Positions 6,250-13,586 of a stretch of DNA of 64,000 nt are shown here, in pieces (position 1 is the stretch's first letter; each line of letters opens with the position of its first letter). The DNA comes from Candidatus Levyibacteriota bacterium. Lineage in GTDB: Bacteria > Patescibacteriota > Microgenomatia > Levybacterales > UBA12049. The stretch lies in the NCBI GenBank assembly GCA_016186625.1, contig JACPLG010000003.1:98576-162575 (forward strand). The letters are read 5' to 3'. A program made the position numbers and the translations under genes. Under the pieces are notes generated by a model, which saw nothing but the letters and a program-made list of their open reading frames with translations, did not search any database and was not told the origin of the DNA.

Positions 6250-6357
6250 GTGCTATAATTGCCCCAATGAATGATAGAATCTTGCTTCCCACATTCCAAG
6301 TGGGAAGGTACATTCAGACACCAAAAACCCTAAGCACAACTCTGCTACAATTGCCCC
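6250..6357 (+). repeat. ~110-bp interspersed repeat, copy 1: promoter-like motif at both ends, central hairpin CTTCCCACATTCCAAGTGGGAAG, embedded short ORF
   Basis: Near-identical to 12758-12865 (a few mismatches); hairpin at 6285-6307. Confidence 0.8.
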
Positions 6358-6435
6358 AATTTTCTTGTTGACAATATTTTTCTTTGGGAGTATGTTGCAA
6401 ATACAACCTATACAAGAAAGGGGGTGAAGAAATAA

Positions 6436-7197
6436 ATGGGTATTTCACAAACAAAGTGGACTTTGGGAATTGTTGCCATAGTAATAATTGCCGTTGCAGC
6501 AATTTTTGTCTACCAATCCAAAGTAAGTAACATTCCCTCAACTCAACCAACTTCGCAAGAGTCAACGACAATCGGTAAAATAACTGATATTACGTTTGTA
6601 AATCATATACAGGCAAAGCTACCTGAGCAGGACGTTTTCATTCAAAGTAAGGATGACTCTTCAAAGGTAATACGTGTTGAAGGCGAAACGGCAAGCGATC
6701 CATCAGTATTAGCTCAAACTGTCTATGCGACAGCTGTTGAAACACCGCATGACCCTTTTAAAGTGGGCGACAATCCCTTGGGGCCTTTTCAAAAAGGTGT
6801 TAATCTAGGATTCAACTTAGAAGACTGGCTGGCAGCAACGGGTAAAGGTACGTACAGTGTTGATGGCGATGATGCAGAGCTTTCTCTCTCATTTACAAAC
6901 CTTGTGCCAAATAGCACTTATACTGTTTGGTGTTCACGAATCACTTTCCCACCTACTCCAAATGTGGTGGACAGGCCATGTGGTGCAGCGGATGGCTCAG
7001 AGAATGTATTTACAACAGATGAGAATGGGAATGGTTTATTTTCAGTAAAAATGGAACCATTAGAACCAAGCACCAAAGAAACAGTATCGGCTATTGCACT
7101 TGCTTATCATAGTGATGGAAAAACATACGCGGAAAGTCCTGGCAATTTTGGACTTAACAGCCACGTACAGATTTTCTATCTTTTGCCGGCACAATAA
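6436..7197 (+). CDS. membrane-anchored hypothetical protein
   Basis: SD AAAGGGGGTGAAG; N-terminal TM; 253 aa. Confidence 0.6.
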   Translation: MGISQTKWTLGIVAIVIIAVAAIFVYQSKVSNIPSTQPTSQESTTIGKITDITFVNHIQAKLPEQDVFIQSKDDSSKVIRVEGETASDPSVLAQTVYATAVETPHDPFKVGDNPLGPFQKGVNLGFNLEDWLAATGKGTYSVDGDDAELSLSFTNLVPNSTYTVWCSRITFPPTPNVVDRPCGAADGSENVFTTDENGNGLFSVKMEPLEPSTKETVSAIALAYHSDGKTYAESPGNFGLNSHVQIFYLLPAQ

Positions 7198-7383
7198 TAG
7201 TTAGATAGATATCTGTCTCATACCTGTATGTTTATCTAGCCATATATTTTTTTGTGATAAAGTTGGTTACTTCCCTTGCCCTTCAGGGTGAAACCTTCAG
7301 GATGAATCCCTCGAAGTTCAGCATTGCATGAACGAAGTGGGGTGCTATAATTGCCCCAAAATTTTGCTATCCAAATTACATAG

Positions 7384-7758
7384 CTAATTTTTATTTAGTT
7401 TTTGTCTTTTAATACGAATGCCTGAGAGGGAAATTATAATCAAATTCCCTGAATAATCATTTTTCCTAAGTTTACTTAAGGCAGATTTTACAGCTTTATT
7501 AATGTAACCAGTAGAAAGTTCGTTTGGGAATCGTAGAATTACAATTCCACTATGAGACCCAAGCGGAAAGTTTAATATGTTTGAAAATCCTAAGTCAGCG
7601 GAAAATAAAACAGCTTTATTACCTTTGGCAAACTTAAATATTTCTATATCTGCCTTGCCTCTTAGGCCATGGTCTCTAACATCAAATACATTAAATCCTA
7701 GATTCGAGAGTACATTTGCTAAAGATTTGTGAAGATCCTCATCTATTAAGGCATTCAT
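7384..7758 (-). CDS. DUF5615-family (PIN-like) putative toxin
   Basis: Sequence pattern of DUF5615; 4-nt overlap with upstream DUF433 gene. Confidence 0.65.
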   Translation of the reverse strand: MNALIDEDLHKSLANVLSNLGFNVFDVRDHGLRGKADIEIFKFAKGNKAVLFSADLGFSNILNFPLGSHSGIVILRFPNELSTGYINKAVKSALSKLRKNDYSGNLIIISLSGIRIKRQKLNKN

Positions 7759-8012
7759 CTGAGGGCGACTTCTTCTTCCTCAACAAGTTTTGTGGCGTAC
7801 TTTAAAGCCGCTAAGACTTGCTGGCGAGTAAGTTCGTACTCTTTCATAACCTCATCTACGCTCATCCCTCCGGCAATTTTACCCACAACCACGTCAACCG
7901 GTACGCGCGTTTTTTCAATAATTGGTTTTCCAAAACGTACTTTTGGATCAACAATAATATGTGGAAAAATTTGCTTTTTCATACGACCACTAGTATAGCA
8001 TAACTTAATCAT
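7755..8012 (-). CDS. DUF433-family putative antitoxin
   Basis: IVDPKVRFGKPIIEKTRVPVDVVVGKIAGGMSVDEVMKEYELTRQQVLAALKYA is the canonical DUF433 pattern; start ATG 8012 is more plausible than ORF-track GTG 8036. Confidence 0.65.
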   Translation of the reverse strand: MIKLCYTSGRMKKQIFPHIIVDPKVRFGKPIIEKTRVPVDVVVGKIAGGMSVDEVMKEYELTRQQVLAALKYATKLVEEEEVALR

Positions 8013-8157
8013 GGTTTTTTCTTTGCATTTTTGCACTAGTTAAAATAACGACAGGTTTTCCTGATCGAGTGATTAAAACCTTTTTGTTTCCATAAAATAC
8101 CTCGTTTATTATTTCAGAAAAATTTTGTCGAGCCTGTTTTGCTGTTACCGTTTTCAC
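8005..8157 (-). CDS. Phd/YefM-like antitoxin N-terminal domain (50 aa), not in ORF track
   Basis: Manual translation VKTVTAKQARQNFSEIINEVFYGNKKVLITRSGKPVVILTSAKMQRKNHD parallels E. coli YefM (ARQNLS...ILITRQNG...VLMS); GTG start; its stop overlaps the ATG of the DUF433 gene (cATGATTAA). Confidence 0.5.
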   Translation of the reverse strand: MKTVTAKQARQNFSEIINEVFYGNKKVLITRSGKPVVILTSAKMQRKNHD

Positions 8158-8222
8158 ATCCTGATTTTATTTAACGCGATTACAAAAAAAGTTATAGAGT
8201 TATCTCTGCTATAATTGCCCCA

Positions 8223-8897
8223 ATGGATTTGGACAATAAAAGTGTGGTAATAGTTGGCGCCTCAAGCGGTTTGGGCAAAGCTTTGGCTAAACTTTTGTCC
8301 AAAGAGGGCACAAACTTATTTCTTATCTCAAGAAAAGTCGCCTTATCAAATATTCCCTCCGCTATAAAAATTGCTGCTGATGTAAGAAAAGCCGAAAATA
8401 TAAAAATAGCATTTGAGGAAATTGACAAACACACAGGTAGCATAGATCTTCTAATCAATTGTGCAGGCATAGGTCTTTTAAAAGATTTAAGGGAATCGAC
8501 AATAGAGGAAATAAATGATGTTATTGATACGGATTTAAAAGGGGCAATTTACGTAGCTCAGGAAGTTTATAAAAGAATGGCGGAGAAAGGATCGGGACAT
8601 ATCATAAATATTGTCTCTACTTCGGGACTCCGAGCCAGACCCATGGAGACAGTTTATTGCGCTGCAAAATGGGGACTTCGGGGATTTACAGAAAGTCTCC
8701 AAGTCGCTGGAGAAGAAACAGGAGTTAAGGTAACCGGAGTCTATCCGGGCGGAATGAAATCTGAAAATTTCTGGAAAATAACTCCAGGAAAAGATATAAG
8801 CGGCTTTATGGACCAAAATGAAGTCGCCCAAAAGATTATAGATTTAATCAAGGGGGATTACCAAAAAGAAGTAACAATAGAGCGTCCCAAAAAATAA
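8223..8897 (+). CDS. short-chain dehydrogenase/reductase (SDR) family oxidoreductase
   Basis: VVIVGASSGLGKA (TGxxxGxG), YCAAKWG (YxxxK); ATG 9 nt after TATAAT of the repeat motif. Confidence 0.85.
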   Translation: MDLDNKSVVIVGASSGLGKALAKLLSKEGTNLFLISRKVALSNIPSAIKIAADVRKAENIKIAFEEIDKHTGSIDLLINCAGIGLLKDLRESTIEEINDVIDTDLKGAIYVAQEVYKRMAEKGSGHIINIVSTSGLRARPMETVYCAAKWGLRGFTESLQVAGEETGVKVTGVYPGGMKSENFWKITPGKDISGFMDQNEVAQKIIDLIKGDYQKEVTIERPKK

Positions 8898-8906
8898 CTT
8901 CTCTGC

Positions 8907-8912
8907 TATAAT
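8907..8912 (+). promoter_or_regulatory. copy of TGCTATAATTGCCCC motif with no ORF downstream; candidate sRNA promoter
   Basis: Followed by ~110 nt of non-coding sequence ending in a perfect 10-bp palindrome TCAATGATTT/AAATCATTGA plus AGTTTT (9003-9028). Confidence 0.4.
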
Positions 8913-9050
8913 TGCCCCATTTATCCTTAGCCTCAAAAGGTCTCACCTTGCAAGGCTAAAACTCCATCGTCTAGTCTACGGTCTTATCTTCCATGGATTA
9001 ATTCAATGATTTAAATCATTGAAGTTTTCAGCTTCTGCTATAATTGCCCC

Positions 9051-9773
9051 ATGGACTCAGGAGATTTTCAGAGACGTTTTGAACAAGCACACAAACTCCT
9101 CACCCAGGAGACAACCAACCGAGAGAAATTTGAGGGAGTACGAACTTTGATAAAAGGTTATAATCCCAAAGTTGACAGCGCTTTAGAAAAAGTCTCCGGT
9201 GCTTTGTCTGATCTTGAAAAGCTTAAGGAAGGAGAAATAATTGAACTTAGCGCTCAACATTTACCCGAAAATTCGGAAGAAGAGAAGGAAAGAAAAAAGA
9301 AACTTTTAGCTTTTATTCGTTATTGGAAAGATTTAACTTCAGAAGTTGAAAGAGTTAGAAATGAGCTTTCTTCGCAAAACAACCAAAGCCCGTCCCAACA
9401 AGTCTCTGCTTTTGGAAAAATTGTCAAACTTGCAAAAGGACCATTTGGGGCAGTTACAATTGCTGCAGTTGCTATCGTTGCCGTACTGGGATTTATTAAT
9501 TTTCAAAAACCACCGGAAACGGTTCAGAATCAAGCGATCGATGAAAGTCCAAAACAAAAGATCCAAGTTATTGTAGTAGATGACAAAAAAATTCCTTTAA
9601 GCGAAGTTAGATCTGCAACTGGGAGTGAATGTGAAGGAAAAGCCCATTACCATGCAAGGGAGAATGGTGTTGCTGTGGCAATTGATGGAACGCAAGTCGT
9701 TGATCCAAATCCAACAAGCTGCGGCTATGGAAAAGTGGAAGAAGTTAAGATTGAAGAAATAGAACAACCCTAA
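9051..9773 (+). CDS. hypothetical bitopic membrane protein (cytoplasmic coiled-coil N-domain, one TM, extracytoplasmic C-domain)
   Basis: ATG directly follows the TGCTATAATTGCCCC motif; TM GAVTIAAVAIVAVLGFI. Confidence 0.5.
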   Translation: MDSGDFQRRFEQAHKLLTQETTNREKFEGVRTLIKGYNPKVDSALEKVSGALSDLEKLKEGEIIELSAQHLPENSEEEKERKKKLLAFIRYWKDLTSEVERVRNELSSQNNQSPSQQVSAFGKIVKLAKGPFGAVTIAAVAIVAVLGFINFQKPPETVQNQAIDESPKQKIQVIVVDDKKIPLSEVRSATGSECEGKAHYHARENGVAVAIDGTQVVDPNPTSCGYGKVEEVKIEEIEQP

Positions 9774-9793
9774 ACTTCTGCTATAATTTATGT

Positions 9794-10369
9794 ATGGCAG
9801 TAACATCTACAATGCTTCCGCTTGGCACAAAGGCACCGGATTTTAGTTTACCTGATGTTGTTTCAAATAAAACTGTAAACCTTGAAATCTTTAACGATAA
9901 AAAAGCACTTCTTGTTATGTTCATTTGTCGCCATTGTCCATATGTAAAACATGTCCAAAATGAAATAGCAAAAATCGGAAAAGATTATGAGGATAAAGAT
10001 TTGGGGATTGTCGCAATTAGTGCAAATGATGTTTCGGTTTATCCTGAAGACGGGCCGCAAAGTTTGAAAGAAATGGCAGATGAGTTAGGGTTTACTTTTC
10101 CCTATTTATATGATGAAGCACAAGAGGTTGCAAAAGCATACACTGCAGCTTGTACTCCGGATTTGTTTTTGTTCGATCATGATAGAAAATTAGTTTATAG
10201 AGGACAACTCGATGGGAGTCGGCCAGGCAATAACGAACCTGTAACTGGAAAAGATATAAGAGCGGCAATTGATGCGGTGCTTAATGATAGTGAAGTTTCA
10301 AAAGGCCAAAAACCGAGCATGGGCTGCAGCATTAAATGGAAGATCGGTAATGAACCTTCGTATTTCTAA
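9794..10369 (+). CDS. thioredoxin-fold (redoxin/TlpA-like) protein with CxxC
   Basis: KAPDFSLPD...LVMFICRHCPYV redoxin pattern; ATG 6 nt after TATAAT. Confidence 0.7.
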   Translation: MAVTSTMLPLGTKAPDFSLPDVVSNKTVNLEIFNDKKALLVMFICRHCPYVKHVQNEIAKIGKDYEDKDLGIVAISANDVSVYPEDGPQSLKEMADELGFTFPYLYDEAQEVAKAYTAACTPDLFLFDHDRKLVYRGQLDGSRPGNNEPVTGKDIRAAIDAVLNDSEVSKGQKPSMGCSIKWKIGNEPSYF

Positions 10370-10378
10370 AGAACTAAT

Positions 10379-11140
10379 TTATTTGTATTTTTTAATCAGT
10401 CCTTCAAAAGCGCGGAGCACTTCAAGAGGAGTTACGAAAACTATAGTGTTACTTTTGTCGGATGATAATTCCGAAAGAGTCTGCAGAGTACGGACGTGGA
10501 GACCTCCTGTAGTTTTGGCAAGCCTTCCAGCTGCAATAGCAATATTTTCCGCTGCTGCTTTTTCTCCTTCAGCCCGAATAACAATTGCCCGGCGCTCCCT
10601 TTCTGCTTCAGCCTGGCGTGCTATAACTCTTTTCATCTCTTCTGGCAAAATAATATCTTTTAACTCCACTGACTCTACCTTAATACCCCATGGATCTGTA
10701 GCCCTATCTATAATTGTCTGAATTTTTTTGGCAACTTGATCGCGCTTTGAGAGTAAATCGTCAAGAGAAGTTTCTCCAATTACATTTCTCATAGTTGTTT
10801 GAGCCAGCTGGGACACTGCATAAAAGAAATCCTCTACCTGCAAAACCGCCTTTTTTGCCTGATCTACGCGGTAATAAATGACAGCATTAACGCGGGCTGA
10901 AACATTATCCCGAGTGATTGCTTCCTGATCCGGAACGTCTACTGCCTTTACCCTGATGTCAATTCTTTGCCAGCCTTCTATAATAGGCCAAACAATTCTC
11001 CATCCGGGAACCATCTCGTCTCGAAATTTTCCAAAGCGGAAGCGGACTCCGCGCTCATATTGATTAACCTGTTTTATAGAGGGAATAAGAATTACCAAGA
11101 AAAAGATAATAATCCCAAGTGAAAAGACTGCAAAATCCAT
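10379..11140 (-). CDS. SPFH/band-7 (stomatin/prohibitin-like) membrane protein
   Basis: N-terminal TM plus ERGVRFRFGKF...; typical SPFH domain and coiled-coil tail. Confidence 0.85.
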   Translation of the reverse strand: MDFAVFSLGIIIFFLVILIPSIKQVNQYERGVRFRFGKFRDEMVPGWRIVWPIIEGWQRIDIRVKAVDVPDQEAITRDNVSARVNAVIYYRVDQAKKAVLQVEDFFYAVSQLAQTTMRNVIGETSLDDLLSKRDQVAKKIQTIIDRATDPWGIKVESVELKDIILPEEMKRVIARQAEAERERRAIVIRAEGEKAAAENIAIAAGRLAKTTGGLHVRTLQTLSELSSDKSNTIVFVTPLEVLRAFEGLIKKYK

Positions 11141-11229
11141 TTGGGAAGTATATTACATCAAAACATTTACATTATCAAATTAAGAAAACAGATTTTGAAA
11201 TTTCTATTCTCTGCTATAATTGCCCCGGT

Positions 11230-11667
11230 TTATTGCTTTATATACCTTTCTATTTCTTTTAGAAAATCATCCGGTGTTAGAATTTCTATTTGACGAAAGG
11301 TTTTCAATGTTAATAAATCACTATCTCCTGTTACAATAAAGCCAGATTTACCTTCAATTGCTGCTTCAAGTACTCTATTGTCGTCCTCATCTTCAAGGAT
11401 ATAAATAATTTCATCTGGATGGATAATTTTAAAATGTTTTTTTATGATTTTTTCTAACTGCTTGACTCTGATCAGCTCAAAATTAAATTTTTTGGTTAAA
11501 GTTTCTGTTAATTCAGCAAGGAGCACTGGAGAACTTATCCCAATAATTTGTTTTTCTAAAATGAGGCTATAAACTTGTTCTGGTTTTCCGCCAAATACTA
11601 GAGCGGAGATAATAACATTTGTGTCGAGGACTGCTTTAGGAGGCTTTTTTACCATGCCTAAATTCAT
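11230..11667 (-). CDS. PIN-domain toxin (VapC-like)
   Basis: VLDTNVIISAL N-terminal PIN motif; acidic residues D...E...D; overlaps upstream RHH gene. Confidence 0.75.
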   Translation of the reverse strand: MNLGMVKKPPKAVLDTNVIISALVFGGKPEQVYSLILEKQIIGISSPVLLAELTETLTKKFNFELIRVKQLEKIIKKHFKIIHPDEIIYILEDEDDNRVLEAAIEGKSGFIVTGDSDLLTLKTFRQIEILTPDDFLKEIERYIKQ

Positions 11668-11887
11668 AAACGATCTTATTTACTTCCTTTTCGCTTTTAA
11701 TCCCCATTTTTTTACCAACTTTTTTGCCATAGTCTAAAAGATCATTCCATTCCTGCCTGTCTTGCAAATAAACTCTTAAAGCCTCACGAATTAGCTCGCT
11801 TCTGTTGCGATATTCTTTTTTAGCAAGAATGTCTACTCTTTTGACTAAGTCTTTTGGAAGAGCAATGTTTAATGTTTGTGTTGCCAT
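11636..11887 (-). CDS. ribbon-helix-helix (CopG-like) antitoxin
   Basis: MATQTLNIALPKDLVKRVDILAKKEYRNRSELIREALRVYL RHH pattern; the matching minus-strand promoter is listed separately at 11896-11924. Confidence 0.65.
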   Translation of the reverse strand: MATQTLNIALPKDLVKRVDILAKKEYRNRSELIREALRVYLQDRQEWNDLLDYGKKVGKKMGIKSEKEVNKIVYEFRHGKKAS

Positions 11888-11895
11888 ATACAAAT

Positions 11896-11924
11896 ATTGT
11901 ATGTAATTGATATATCTTTGTCAA
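11896..11924 (-). promoter_or_regulatory. consensus sigma70-type promoter for the RHH-PIN operon (leaderless)
   Basis: Minus-strand TTGACA (11919-11924), 17-nt spacer, TACAAT (11896-11901), 8 nt to ATG at 11887. Confidence 0.6.
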
Positions 11925-12007
11925 CACTCAAAAACCATCATCTGCTATAATTGCCCCAAATTGCAAACAGCCCATTTTGCACTATTTAATCTCCCAGAAT
12001 AATTGTA

Positions 12008-12035
12008 TTGACAAAGTATGTACAGTTAGTATAAT
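12008..12035 (+). promoter_or_regulatory. consensus sigma70-type promoter for brnTA (leaderless)
   Basis: TTGACA (12008-12013), 16-nt spacer, TATAAT (12030-12035), 6 nt to GTG start 12042. Confidence 0.6.
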
Positions 12036-12041
12036 ATGTAA

Positions 12042-12323
12042 GTGAAATATAAGTTTGATTATTCGCTAGAGAAAGATTTAATTCTTAAAGAATCAAGAGG
12101 TGTTAGCTTTAGAGAAGTAATTCAAGCATACAGAACTGGGAAAAAGCTTGCTGACTATGAAAACAAAAGCAAAAAACACCCTAATCAAAGACTTTTAATT
12201 GTTAATATCAAAGGCTATGCATACGTTACGCCATATGTTATAGATGAAAAAAGGAAAAGAGTATTTTTAAAAACTGTATATCCAAGCAGCAAATTAACTA
12301 AGGAGTACATAAAAAAATTATGA
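12042..12323 (+). CDS. brnT: BrnT-like toxin (DUF497 ribonuclease)
   Basis: KFDYSLEKDLILKESRGVSFREVIQAY...RLLIVNIKGYAYVTPYV pattern of BrnT/DUF497; 4-nt overlap with downstream antitoxin. Confidence 0.65.
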   Translation: MKYKFDYSLEKDLILKESRGVSFREVIQAYRTGKKLADYENKSKKHPNQRLLIVNIKGYAYVTPYVIDEKRKRVFLKTVYPSSKLTKEYIKKL

Positions 12324-12628
12324 AAAAGAAAAAATTTGATCCATTTAAAAATCTTAAACTAGATAAATACGAACAGGAAATAGAAGATGCTCTTGAAAGA
12401 GAGGAATTTGTTCCTGTAGAAGACTCTTCGGAAATTAATAAAATATTGACAGAGGCTGCAAAAAATTATACCGAGCTTGAAAACAGCAAGAGTATAACTT
12501 TAAGAATTAAAAATATAGATCTAATAAAATTAAAAGCAAAAGCCGCAAGAAATAAAATTCCCTATCAGACTCTTATAAATTTACTTATAAAAGAATACAC
12601 AGAAGGCAAAACAAAAATATCATTGTAA
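12320..12628 (+). CDS. brnA: BrnA-like antitoxin
   Basis: Typical position and size after brnT; ITLRIKNIDLIKLKAKAARNKIPYQTLINLLIKEY matches the BrnA C-terminal RHH-like region. Confidence 0.6.
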   Translation: MKKKKFDPFKNLKLDKYEQEIEDALEREEFVPVEDSSEINKILTEAAKNYTELENSKSITLRIKNIDLIKLKAKAARNKIPYQTLINLLIKEYTEGKTKISL

Positions 12629-12757
12629 ATTCCTCAATTCTCATAGTTTGAAAAGGTGAGGGGTGCTTGCCCTGTTTACCCTGAACACTTGGAGGGAGCA
12701 ATGCCGAAGGGTTTACGCAGAGCGAAAGTGGGGTGCTTGCCCTGAGCAATGCCGAAG

Positions 12758-12865
12758 GACTATAATTGCCCCAATGAATAATAGAATCTTGCTTCCCACA
12801 TTCCAAGTGGGAAGGTACATTCAGACACCAAAAACCCTAAGCACAACTCTGCTATAATTGCCCCA
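12758..12865 (+). repeat. ~110-bp interspersed repeat, copy 2
   Basis: Near-identical to 6250-6357; hairpin 12792-12814; preceded by internal direct repeats GGGGTGCTTGCCCTG...GCAATGCCGAAGG x2 (12660-12758). Confidence 0.8.
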
Positions 12866-12867
12866 GA

Positions 12868-13083
12868 TCATTTTAGTCTTAAGAATTCTTCTTCGCTAGA
12901 CTCCGCTTGTTTGATTATGCCTCTTACTAGTCCTTTTTTGAGTTCTTTGGTGTGCATTGGAACAGGAATAATCTTCTTTGATTTGGGATTATACATAATA
13001 AGATGACTGCCGGTTTGTCTTTTCTTAATGTATCCGAGTTTTTGAAGAATTTTGACTATCTCTCTTGCTTTAAAACTAGCCAT
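12868..13083 (-). CDS. hicA: HicA-family mRNA interferase toxin
   Basis: REIVKILQKLGYIKKRQTGSHLIMYNPKSKKIIPVPMH is the canonical HicA (YcfA-like) pattern. Confidence 0.75.
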   Translation of the reverse strand: MASFKAREIVKILQKLGYIKKRQTGSHLIMYNPKSKKIIPVPMHTKELKKGLVRGIIKQAESSEEEFLRLK

Positions 13084-13347
13084 TTATAGAGATACTGCTG
13101 GATTTTGTACGGAAATTTGCGTGATGACAACATTTGACCCTTCTTGTGGAATTTCTTGCTTCTCTTCTTTAAGAACCTCTAAATACCCTTTCATAGCGTC
13201 TTTTATCATAGATACCGCTTCCTCAAAAGTCTCACCTTGACTTACACAGCCGGGAAGAGCTGGAACACTAACTACATAACCGCCTTCTTCAGCCGGTTCA
13301 AAAATAACAGTATATTTTAAGATTTTTTTAGAAAGAGATTTAGCCAT
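13084..13347 (-). CDS. hicB: HicB-family antitoxin
   Basis: YTVIFEPAEEGGYVVSVPALPGCVSQGETFEEAVSMIKDAMKGYLE HicB N-domain pattern; TATAAT 6 nt upstream of ATG (leaderless). Confidence 0.75.
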   Translation of the reverse strand: MAKSLSKKILKYTVIFEPAEEGGYVVSVPALPGCVSQGETFEEAVSMIKDAMKGYLEVLKEEKQEIPQEGSNVVITQISVQNPAVSL

Positions 13348-13586
13348 GCTCTAATTATATCACACCCAAACCTTATCTTCCTTGCCCCTCGAAGCTTTTT
13401 GCGAAGTGGGGTGCTATAATTGCCCCCCAAAAAAAGCCCTAATGGATAATATACTTCATTACTTTAAAGTATTGAAGTATATAATAATTTTTCCCTTTTT
13501 CCTCGTAGCATTTCTGTTTACACTGAGTAAAACCGAAGTGCTATAATTGCCCCGGGGGTTATTAATAAAAAAAATGACCCCTGAAT

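Follow-up and report, generated by a model that had tools for sequence, protein, structure and literature searches.

The window analysed here, a stretch of 64,000 nucleotides (nt) from a Candidatus Levyibacteriota bacterium (contig JACPLG010000003.1), carries three consecutive small genes on its minus strand. The first of them, which we call mini-Phd (8005–8157), runs from a GTG start to a TAA stop and encodes 50 amino acids (aa), namely the N-terminal DNA-binding and dimerisation domain of the Phd/YefM antitoxins (families PF02604 and TIGR01552) followed by a short basic tail. After a spacer of 22 nt (7983–8004) come a gene of the DUF433 (COG2442) family, coding for a predicted DNA-binding antitoxin (7755–7982), and a gene of the DUF5615 family, coding for a predicted PIN-like toxin (7384–7758; 124 aa). 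An earlier note, made from the letters of this DNA, had read the three genes as one translationally coupled three-gene toxin–antitoxin (TA) module. The comparisons described below uphold the genes and their head-to-tail order on one strand, but a dedicated three-gene TA module is not upheld.

Mini-Phd and its family

The open reading frame (ORF) is present, with exactly the peptide that the earlier note quoted (VKTVTAKQARQNFSEIINEVFYGNKKVLITRSGKPVVILTSAKMQRKNHD, minus strand, window 8005–8157). The note had called it unlisted, which is true of the ORF list that its author worked from but not of NCBI, where a 171,713-bp contig carries the identical protein under the name 'type II toxin-antitoxin system Phd/YefM family antitoxin [Candidatus Levybacteria bacterium]'; an exact-sequence look-up of the protein in the contig index gave no match. 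The profile search proposed with the note was positive: the ORF scores 43.6 bits (E 2.6e-11) against PF02604 (PhdYeFM_antitox) and 41.4 bits against the NCBIfam model TIGR01552, above the curated cut-offs of 29.8 bits (gathering) and 20.8 bits, respectively. The PF02604 match covers positions 1–46 of the 74 of the profile, and the protein stops at residue 50, so that the C-terminal, toxin-binding half is indeed absent. The likeness to the N-terminal half of E. coli YefM also stands, as mini-Phd aligns gap-free with YefM residues 1–41, and its R10 and R31 fall, again without gaps, on YefM R10 and R31.

Among 5.8 billion proteins searched, 15 relatives of 48–68 aa were found; all of them start MKTVTAK.ARQNF.E..NE and, shortly past ..SGKP.V.., end in a lysine-rich tail. 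GTDB genomes and JGI metagenomes were scanned as well and contributed loci L012–L063, and 33 other distinct mini-Phd loci, with ORFs of 46–56 aa, were retained after removal of duplicates. The metagenome-assembled genomes (MAGs) that hold them are titled Levybacteria, Daviesbacteria, Woykebacteria, Microgenomates or Patescibacteria. Four typical Microgenomates-type loci (L013, L016, L022 and L023) lie in MAGs titled 'uncultured Gammaproteobacteria bacterium', which is probably a placeholder or a wrong taxonomic label. Remoter matches come from delta-proteobacterial and other MAGs; these are ordinary Phd proteins with 82–90 aa. When 1.84 billion cluster representatives were searched exhaustively with a profile, the top five (E <= 5.3e-18) clearly belonged to the mini-Phd family; they are 56–77 aa long as called, two of them with N-terminal extensions, and below them follows the broad Phd family, mostly of 80–100 aa, with scattered other short entries. 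No mini-Phd relative was found in the viral contigs searched, and no second Phd-like gene in the 64-kb window.

The window copy retains 19 of the 19 family-invariant residues. Over codons 2–41, mean pS is 0.78 (near saturation) and mean pN 0.12 (561 pairs), and comparison of the window gene with its two closest relatives (L010 and L012) gives a dN/dS of 0.07–0.08 with dS above 1. Purifying selection of this strength excludes a recent pseudogene or a chance ORF. Moreover, Logan assemblies of three sequencing runs cover the ORF and match the window without a single difference (100% identity) from 7956 or 8146 on, and a sequencing error is unlikely.

These data also bear on the proposal that mini-Phd is what remains of a full-length phd gene, cut short by a frameshift, by insertion of the cassette or by a sequencing error, a possibility that the earlier note had itself raised against its reading. 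The 46 of 74 Pfam positions, and a cassette boundary only 2 nt past the stop codon, are what such a remnant might leave. However, all 33 other members end at 46–56 aa in quite different contexts, and the tail, which is basic and lysine-rich, 7–12 residues long and poorly conserved between members of the family, resembles in the window those of L010 and L012 (TSAKPQRKKN and TPARSQRKKS). The short length is the conserved state of the whole family, so that the word truncated, used in the earlier note, does not apply in the sense of a recent remnant. Length conservation, dN/dS and the identical independent assemblies rule out a decayed or frameshifted phd, and for the remnant explanation as a whole we see next to no chance. 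As judged from its sequence and relatives, mini-Phd is a real conserved gene that encodes only the DNA-binding half of a Phd/YefM antitoxin and belongs to a Microgenomates family (Candidatus Levy-, Davies- and Woykebacteria).

An AlphaFold2 model built on the family alignment (pLDDT 89.8) predicts strands at residues 2–5, 27–31 and 34–39 and helices at 6–11, 13–23 and 42–49, in the order strand-helix-helix-strand-strand-helix; the N-terminal strand-helix-helix-strand-strand fold of the Phd/YefM family is thus present in the model. The best Foldseek matches in the PDB are P1 Phd on its operator (4ZM2, 4ZM0), 3HS2, 4ZLX, the YefM-YoeB complex 2A6Q and the N-domain of VapB46, with query-normalised TM scores of 0.71–0.79 and root-mean-square deviations (rmsd) of 1.2–2.3 Å; for the Phd N-domain entries, alone (4ZLX) or bound to operator (4ZM0/4ZM2), the TM score is 0.77–0.79, and for 4ZM2, 4ZLX, 3HS2 and 2A6Q it is 0.76–0.79. 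A profile search of PDB sequences gave five matches, four P1 Phd chains and one M. tuberculosis RelB antitoxin. R10 and R31 are invariant in the 14 mini-Phd family members aligned, and in YefM these two residues are essential for operator binding, which is abolished by their mutation (review PMC4803016).

Mini-Phd therefore shares the sequence family, the N-terminal fold and R10/R31 with antitoxins such as phage P1 Phd and E. coli YefM. Unlike them, it has neither the disordered C-terminal toxin-binding segment nor a cognate toxin (Doc, YoeB, RelE/ParE or PIN) as a conserved operon partner, and it is a lone gene with a leaderless-type promoter and variable neighbours. A comparable protein is the engineered N-domain of Phd, of 47–58 residues (4ZLX, entitled 'N-terminal DNA binding domain of the antitoxin Phd', and 3HS2, 'PHD truncated to residue 57'; DNA complexes 4ZM0/4ZM2), which has the same fold (rmsd 1.6–2.1 Å over 47–49 residues). 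These structures indicate that a fragment of such a size can fold, and that chains derived from the full-length protein bind operator DNA; however, the engineered domain is a laboratory truncation of a full-length antitoxin, whereas mini-Phd is a natural conserved product. Orphan antitoxins likewise are antitoxin-family genes without a cognate toxin (stand-alone entries are given for Synechocystis in PMC4963859), but those described are usually full-length leftovers of decayed pairs, whereas in the mini-Phd family the domain-only form is conserved, along with a regulatory element of its own.

The DUF433–DUF5615 cassette and its junction with mini-Phd

The two downstream genes form a typical member of the COG2442/DUF433–PIN-like two-gene modules (Makarova et al. 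2009, PMC2701414). Both Pfam domains are found (PF04255 at 71.6 bits in the antitoxin; PF18480 at 67.6 bits in the toxin, together with a weak PIN_10 match), the antitoxin gene comes first, the two genes overlap by 4 nt as the earlier note reported (ATGA at 7755–7758, on the same strand as mini-Phd), and the pair is kept in six other loci (L064 and L066–L070). In the literature, COG2442/DUF433 is predicted to be a DNA-binding antitoxin that partners PIN-family toxins, and no further gene is conserved in its neighbourhood (PMC2701414); many COG2442/DUF433–PIN pairs are listed for Synechocystis (PMC4963859). Compared with the known modules, the sole oddity in the window is the abutting mini-Phd gene.

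A total of 192 DUF5615 relatives were found at E <= 1e-10, with PF18480 in all of the 120 listed, and the closest among the matches listed are 82, 71 and 64% identical. These three relatives belong to plain two-gene modules, in which DUF433 (75–78 aa) and DUF5615 overlap by 4 nt, a divergent gene lies upstream and there is no Phd. Indeed, a Phd gene was found next to the pair in none of the three close relatives and in none of the six loci that have DNA upstream of DUF433 (L064 and L066–L070). The extent of the cassette was given by comparison with L064, an unrelated contig without phd, to which the window aligns by blastn over 638 positions with 86% DNA identity, from 8003 to 7367. The homology that defines the autonomous cassette (7367–8003, minus strand) thus begins 2 nt after the phd stop (TAA, 8007–8005) and ceases 17 nt after the DUF5615 stop.

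The earlier note had DUF433 starting at an ATG that overlaps the mini-Phd stop. The string it quoted, cATGATTAA, does exist (ATG 8012–8010, TAA 8007–8005), but this ATG lies within the phd coding sequence, outside the cassette homology, and is in frame with DUF433 merely because 10 codons happen to be stop-free. DUF433 begins with MKKQIF or MKKQIY in L064 and L067; L066 is called with the start MREMRKQLF and has an internal Met where the family typically begins. The relatives' starts and the homology breakpoint rule out a start at ATG 8012 or at GTG 8036 and favour ATG 7982; most likely, DUF433 starts there, 22 nt past the phd stop, and has 75 aa.

Moreover, this spacer appears to contain a promoter element of the cassette itself. 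In L064, L066 and L067, TTATGATATACT, an extended -10 (TGnTATACT type), lies upstream of DUF433, 8–9 nt before the family-typical ATG (in L066 the distance is measured to the internal Met, the called ATG directly abutting the element). Its counterpart in the window spacer is GTTATGCTATACT, with the family-typical ATG (7982–7980) 9 nt further on; the conserved extended -10 ahead of ATG 7982 reads TGCTATACT (TG at 8000–7999, TATACT at 7997–7992), and what is common to the three loci and window 7992–8000 is TTATG(A/C)TATACT. This suggests that DUF433–DUF5615 cassettes travel with their own extended -10 promoter and may be translated from leaderless mRNAs. With a spacer of 22 nt that carries the cassette's own promoter element, the translational coupling claimed for the locus is not supported. 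A scan of the spacer between mini-Phd and DUF433 revealed no terminator-like site, and read-through from mini-Phd into the cassette is therefore possible, though incidental.

We also considered that mini-Phd could be an antitoxin, or a co-antitoxin, that binds and neutralises the DUF5615 PIN-like toxin. Phd–PIN pairs exist, such as the 77-aa Phd beside a PIN gene in L010, and PHD–PIN is a frequent pairing (PMC2701414). However, the C-terminal region by which Phd/YefM antitoxins bind toxins is missing from mini-Phd, which has in its place only 7–12 poorly conserved basic residues, and the cognate partner of DUF5615 is DUF433, whose gene shows the canonical overlap of 4 nt. Such a role is very improbable.

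Putative regulatory sequences and neighbours of mini-Phd

In 29 of the 33 other loci a core, GTGTATCAAATGTACAC (up to four mismatches), is found 37–54 nt before the start codon (3 nt in L034). This core sits within a longer, nearly invariant element, TTGTCAATA..TACAAAGTGTATCAAATGTACACAATTTGCAT (also given as TTGTCAATA..GTGTATCAAATGTACACAATTTGCAT), which contains TGTA(C/T)(A/C) units ∼9 bp apart, one of them being the palindrome TGTACA. Exceptions are L011, with a degenerate copy, and L033, where the contig end cuts it; only two loci, L014 and the window, are demonstrably without the element. It abuts a -35-like TTGCAT or TTGACT, with TAnAAT ∼17 nt on and the ATG or GTG ∼6–8 nt after that, a spacing from which we infer that the mini-Phd mRNA may be leaderless or nearly so. 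TGTACA is the core of the paired palindromes, with centres 12 bp apart, that YefM binds in E. coli and many other bacteria (PMC1802561). The hexamer of the yefM-yoeB operators is thus shared with the mini-Phd element, in which, however, TGTA repeats ∼9 bp apart stand in place of paired palindromes 12 bp apart. We infer that mini-Phd would bind this element and repress its own promoter.

The window has a different upstream side. Its proximal sequence, ...CTTTTTTTGTAAT...TAAAAT + 6 nt + GTG, compares with TTGACTTTTGTAAT...TAAAAT + 6 nt + GTG in the closest relative L010, and the hexamer TAAAAT (8164–8169, minus strand), a putative -10 located 6 nt before the GTG, has the leaderless-type spacing. 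Upstream from about -40 the sequence diverges, the -35 position reads ACTTTT, and the operator core is absent (up to 3–4 mismatches) from the 400 nt upstream of mini-Phd and from the whole 64-kb window. Where the operator sits elsewhere, the window has TGCTATAATTGCCCC (8207–8221, plus strand), an extended -10 type motif that ends 1 nt before the ATG (8223) of a divergent SDR gene.

This motif, which consists of an extended -10 (TGnTATAAT) followed by TGCCCC, occurs in 10 exact copies (11 by one count) and three with 1–2 mismatches, all on the plus strand, against 0.18 expected by chance. They begin at 6251, 6343, 7343, 8207, 8904, 9036, 11212, 11943, 12758, 12850, 13412 and 13539 and are confined to ∼7 kb (window 6251–13553), apart from a weaker copy at 1419. 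The copies at 8207 and 9036 end 0–1 nt before an annotated ATG and those at 6251 and 12758 end 1 nt before the ATG of a mere short ORF, the others having no ORF behind them. This placement suggests leaderless mRNAs, and promoters that are extended or have only a -10 seem to be frequent in this genome. A repeat of ∼107 nt, present at 6251–6357 and at 12758–12864, ∼6.5 kb apart, comprises two of the promoter-like motifs with near-identical sequence between them. The copy at 7343–7357 (plus strand), close behind the DUF5615 stop and coincident with a weak hairpin or terminator-like site, is directed into the 3' end of DUF5615, antisense to DUF5615–DUF433–phd; from the motif in 7338–7358 an antisense transcript of the TA cassette could arise, or else the SDR gene could obtain a long 5' leader.

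Absence of the operator raises the possibility that mini-Phd is a stranded relic in this genome, intact but cut off from its -35 and operator by a rearrangement, poorly or constitutively expressed, and on its way to being lost. That only TAAAAT is kept, with ACTTTT at the -35 position, and that the window is one of just two loci demonstrably without the element, is consistent with such a fate. However, the ORF is intact with every family-invariant residue in place, dN/dS against the closest relatives is 0.07 although dS exceeds 1, and -10-only or extended promoters seem to be common here. We consider the relic explanation improbable.

Further upstream of mini-Phd, on the same strand, at least 24 of the 33 other loci share a block of ∼400 nt that is GC-richer by eye and has no convincing ORF (for example, outside the window, L012:2460–2873, L021:254–669 and L001:3426–3858). 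RNAalifold predicts 85 pairs in it, of which 30 have changes on both sides, as compared with 13.1 ± 2.3 in shuffled alignments (0/500) and 1–7 when partners are slid. Rfam gave no match to the block, whether with the gathering score, with E <= 0.1 or in a permissive scan of 600 nt, and ARAGORN detected no tRNA or tmRNA, its low-threshold calls being inconsistent; a likeness to RNase P motifs and to the 3' end of tmRNA, seen by eye, was not borne out. The block is a candidate structured RNA, either undescribed or very divergent. In L030, a 16-tRNA array on the opposite strand (L030:100–1811, minus strand) lies upstream and ends ∼410 nt before the mini-Phd start.

Downstream, the neighbours of mini-Phd vary. 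Conservation of the three-gene arrangement, which the earlier note proposed to check, was not found: DUF433 or DUF5615 relatives occur within ∼3 kb of mini-Phd in none of the 33 other loci (tblastn with the window proteins, E <= 1), and no Phd accompanies DUF5615 in the three relatives described above. The contexts of five relatives are, respectively, a convergent DUF3850 gene overlapping mini-Phd by 4 nt; HicB-HicA upstream with a convergent ORF downstream; a co-directional gene for a 247-aa protein without assigned family; a convergent PIN gene and a full-length Phd gene (in the 86%-identical Levybacteria relative); and an IS21/HEPN neighbourhood.

Among 31 informative loci, ∼10 have a co-directional ORF that overlaps mini-Phd or starts within ∼5 nt of its stop. 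These ORFs encode BrnT, followed by a CopG-type BrnA (L015, L047), a Gp49/HigB-like protein, followed by an HTH_3 protein (L020), hydrophobic proteins of 64–65 aa (L014, L018, L037), proteins of 58 aa (L030, L033) and one of 289 aa (L016). Another ∼11 loci have co-directional genes 36–182 nt away, including MNT-HEPN (L019), RelB-ParE/YafQ (L024) and an ORF without Pfam match followed by PIN (L045), these three pairs lying 80–130 nt downstream, as well as DUF2283 (L040), DUF5674 (L021) and others. A convergent gene lies downstream in ∼10 loci. Two mini-Phd copies (L015, L020), each with a different TA pair behind it, are present in a single MAG (JACOYE01). The unusual architecture that the earlier note pointed out, a Phd-type module before a TA pair, thus recurs in other genomes, 0–5 nt upstream of BrnT-BrnA and Gp49-HTH, but never with DUF433–DUF5615.

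In 11 loci (L006, L015, L016, L018, L022, L024, L040, L042, L045, L047 and L049), sodN, encoding a nickel superoxide dismutase (Ni-SOD), is found on the same strand 320–1520 nt downstream of mini-Phd, and in nine of them the gene of its S26 maturation peptidase follows sodN; a search for sodN in the 64-kb window found none. The insert between mini-Phd and sodN differs in nearly every case and is often a TA pair, and the site behind mini-Phd thus appears to act as a variable slot, often filled by TA genes, within surroundings that are otherwise syntenic. The 58-aa ORF of L030 (2389–2565), which begins 4–5 nt after mini-Phd and has the same arrangement in L033, resembles the RelB-like antitoxin of L024 only in the latter's C-terminal 43 residues (35% identity, E 3e-10), and a gene for a 404-aa Fic-domain protein lies ∼200 nt after it in L030. 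The sequence of this ORF fits either a decayed cassette or a split antitoxin. A search for an empty site by way of SDR relatives gave only identical SDR contigs that re-assemble the window and a 70%-identical relative (P0293) in a different neighbourhood.

A probable regulator beside an autonomous cassette

Taken together, we favour, with a probability of about 0.6, the reading of mini-Phd as an independent, domain-only DNA-binding protein of the Phd type and probably a small autorepressor, which in the window has been cut off from its operator and stands beside an autonomous DUF433–DUF5615 cassette. As a complete Phd/YefM N-terminal domain with a short, variable, lysine-rich tail, it would dimerise and bind DNA as a small transcriptional (auto)repressor, acting in other genomes at the TGTACA-type element that abuts the -35 of its own promoter. 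In the window, a rearrangement would have separated it from this context and left the -10 and the coding sequence; the upstream side would now be the promoter of the divergent SDR gene, and the downstream side a cassette of antitoxin (DUF433) and PIN-like toxin (DUF5615) genes that brought its own extended -10. A conserved partner is absent, the relatives of the cassette are two-gene modules, the homology breaks off just behind the phd stop and the cassette has its own -10; mini-Phd is therefore not a dedicated third component of the cassette, nor is it the antitoxin of DUF5615.

Several points weigh against this reading. All three genes point the same way, a mere 22-nt spacer free of terminator-like sites lies between mini-Phd and the cassette, and they may well be co-transcribed. 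Two kinds of the ORFs that closely follow mini-Phd elsewhere are toxin genes, a hint that mini-Phd may be functionally linked to the cassettes behind it and not simply have them as neutral neighbours. Conservation of the upstream element could also have a different cause, the element being the site of another factor or part of the 3' flank of the RNA-like block. The search for the operator covered the 64-kb window of the 171-kb contig, and dimerisation, DNA binding and repression by mini-Phd are deduced from its sequence and modelled fold.

Some of these observations are those expected of a functional three-gene operon in which mini-Phd would be the separate transcriptional regulator of DUF433–DUF5615, as omega is for epsilon-zeta or PaaR for paaA-parE, or more generally a portable regulatory head. 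The shared strand, the short gap free of terminator-like sites, the position of mini-Phd directly before BrnT-BrnA and Gp49-HTH and at a greater distance before MNT-HEPN, RelB-ParE/YafQ and the unassigned ORF–PIN pair, and the two copies in JACOYE01 that head different TA pairs all point in this direction. In omega-epsilon-zeta the trio is conserved and the antitoxin has no DNA-binding domain. Three-component TA systems with a separate regulator are known, among them paaR-paaA-parE (PMC7167474), and in both systems, as in the window, the gene of a small DNA-binding protein comes first, followed on the same strand by those of antitoxin and toxin. However, paaR-paaA-parE is also a conserved trio whose antitoxin lacks a DNA-binding domain, whereas the window trio is unique to this locus, its DUF433 supplies a DNA-binding fold of its own, and the spacer holds a conserved promoter element that belongs to the cassette. 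Elsewhere the partner of mini-Phd is never DUF433–DUF5615, the three closest DUF5615 relatives examined have no Phd, the downstream gene is convergent in ∼10 loci, and the family operator core is absent from the locus, the operon promoter included, and from the window. We regard a three-gene operon as doubtful, although it has more in its favour than the relic.

A wider interpretation, which we put forward only tentatively and hold to be about as doubtful, concerns the family as a whole. Mini-Phd with its operator and leaderless promoter might be a portable 'regulatory head', the split-off DNA-binding domain of an antitoxin that would confer autoregulated transcription on TA cassettes inserting behind its stop, and thus a lineage-specific TA landing pad. 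The cassettes found in this slot include BrnTA, Gp49-HTH, RelBE-like, MNT-HEPN and PIN genes and, in the window, DUF433–DUF5615, and in many Microgenomates genomes mini-Phd is anchored between the ∼400-nt RNA-like block and sodN-sodX. If this interpretation were true, the mini-Phd unit would be a landing pad for TA modules in Microgenomates.

The family of the gene by sequence and fold, and its annotation at NCBI, are already known, whereas no description of a conserved, natural, domain-only Phd family with its own operator-like element was found in the literature searched. For the window the result is mostly corrective, the three-gene 'module' being a chance or lineage-specific juxtaposition of a lone gene and an ordinary cassette. 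While the feature in the window is ordinary, the pattern at the level of the family and the neighbouring RNA-like block deserve follow-up. The mini-Phd family, with arginines equivalent to those that YefM requires at its operator and, in other genomes, an operator-like element of its own, suggests that a type II antitoxin can persist as nothing but its DNA-binding half, an independent small regulator, and its recurrent position before unrelated TA pairs in genomes of the Candidate Phyla Radiation (CPR) offers a testable case of the modular assembly and turnover of TA operons.

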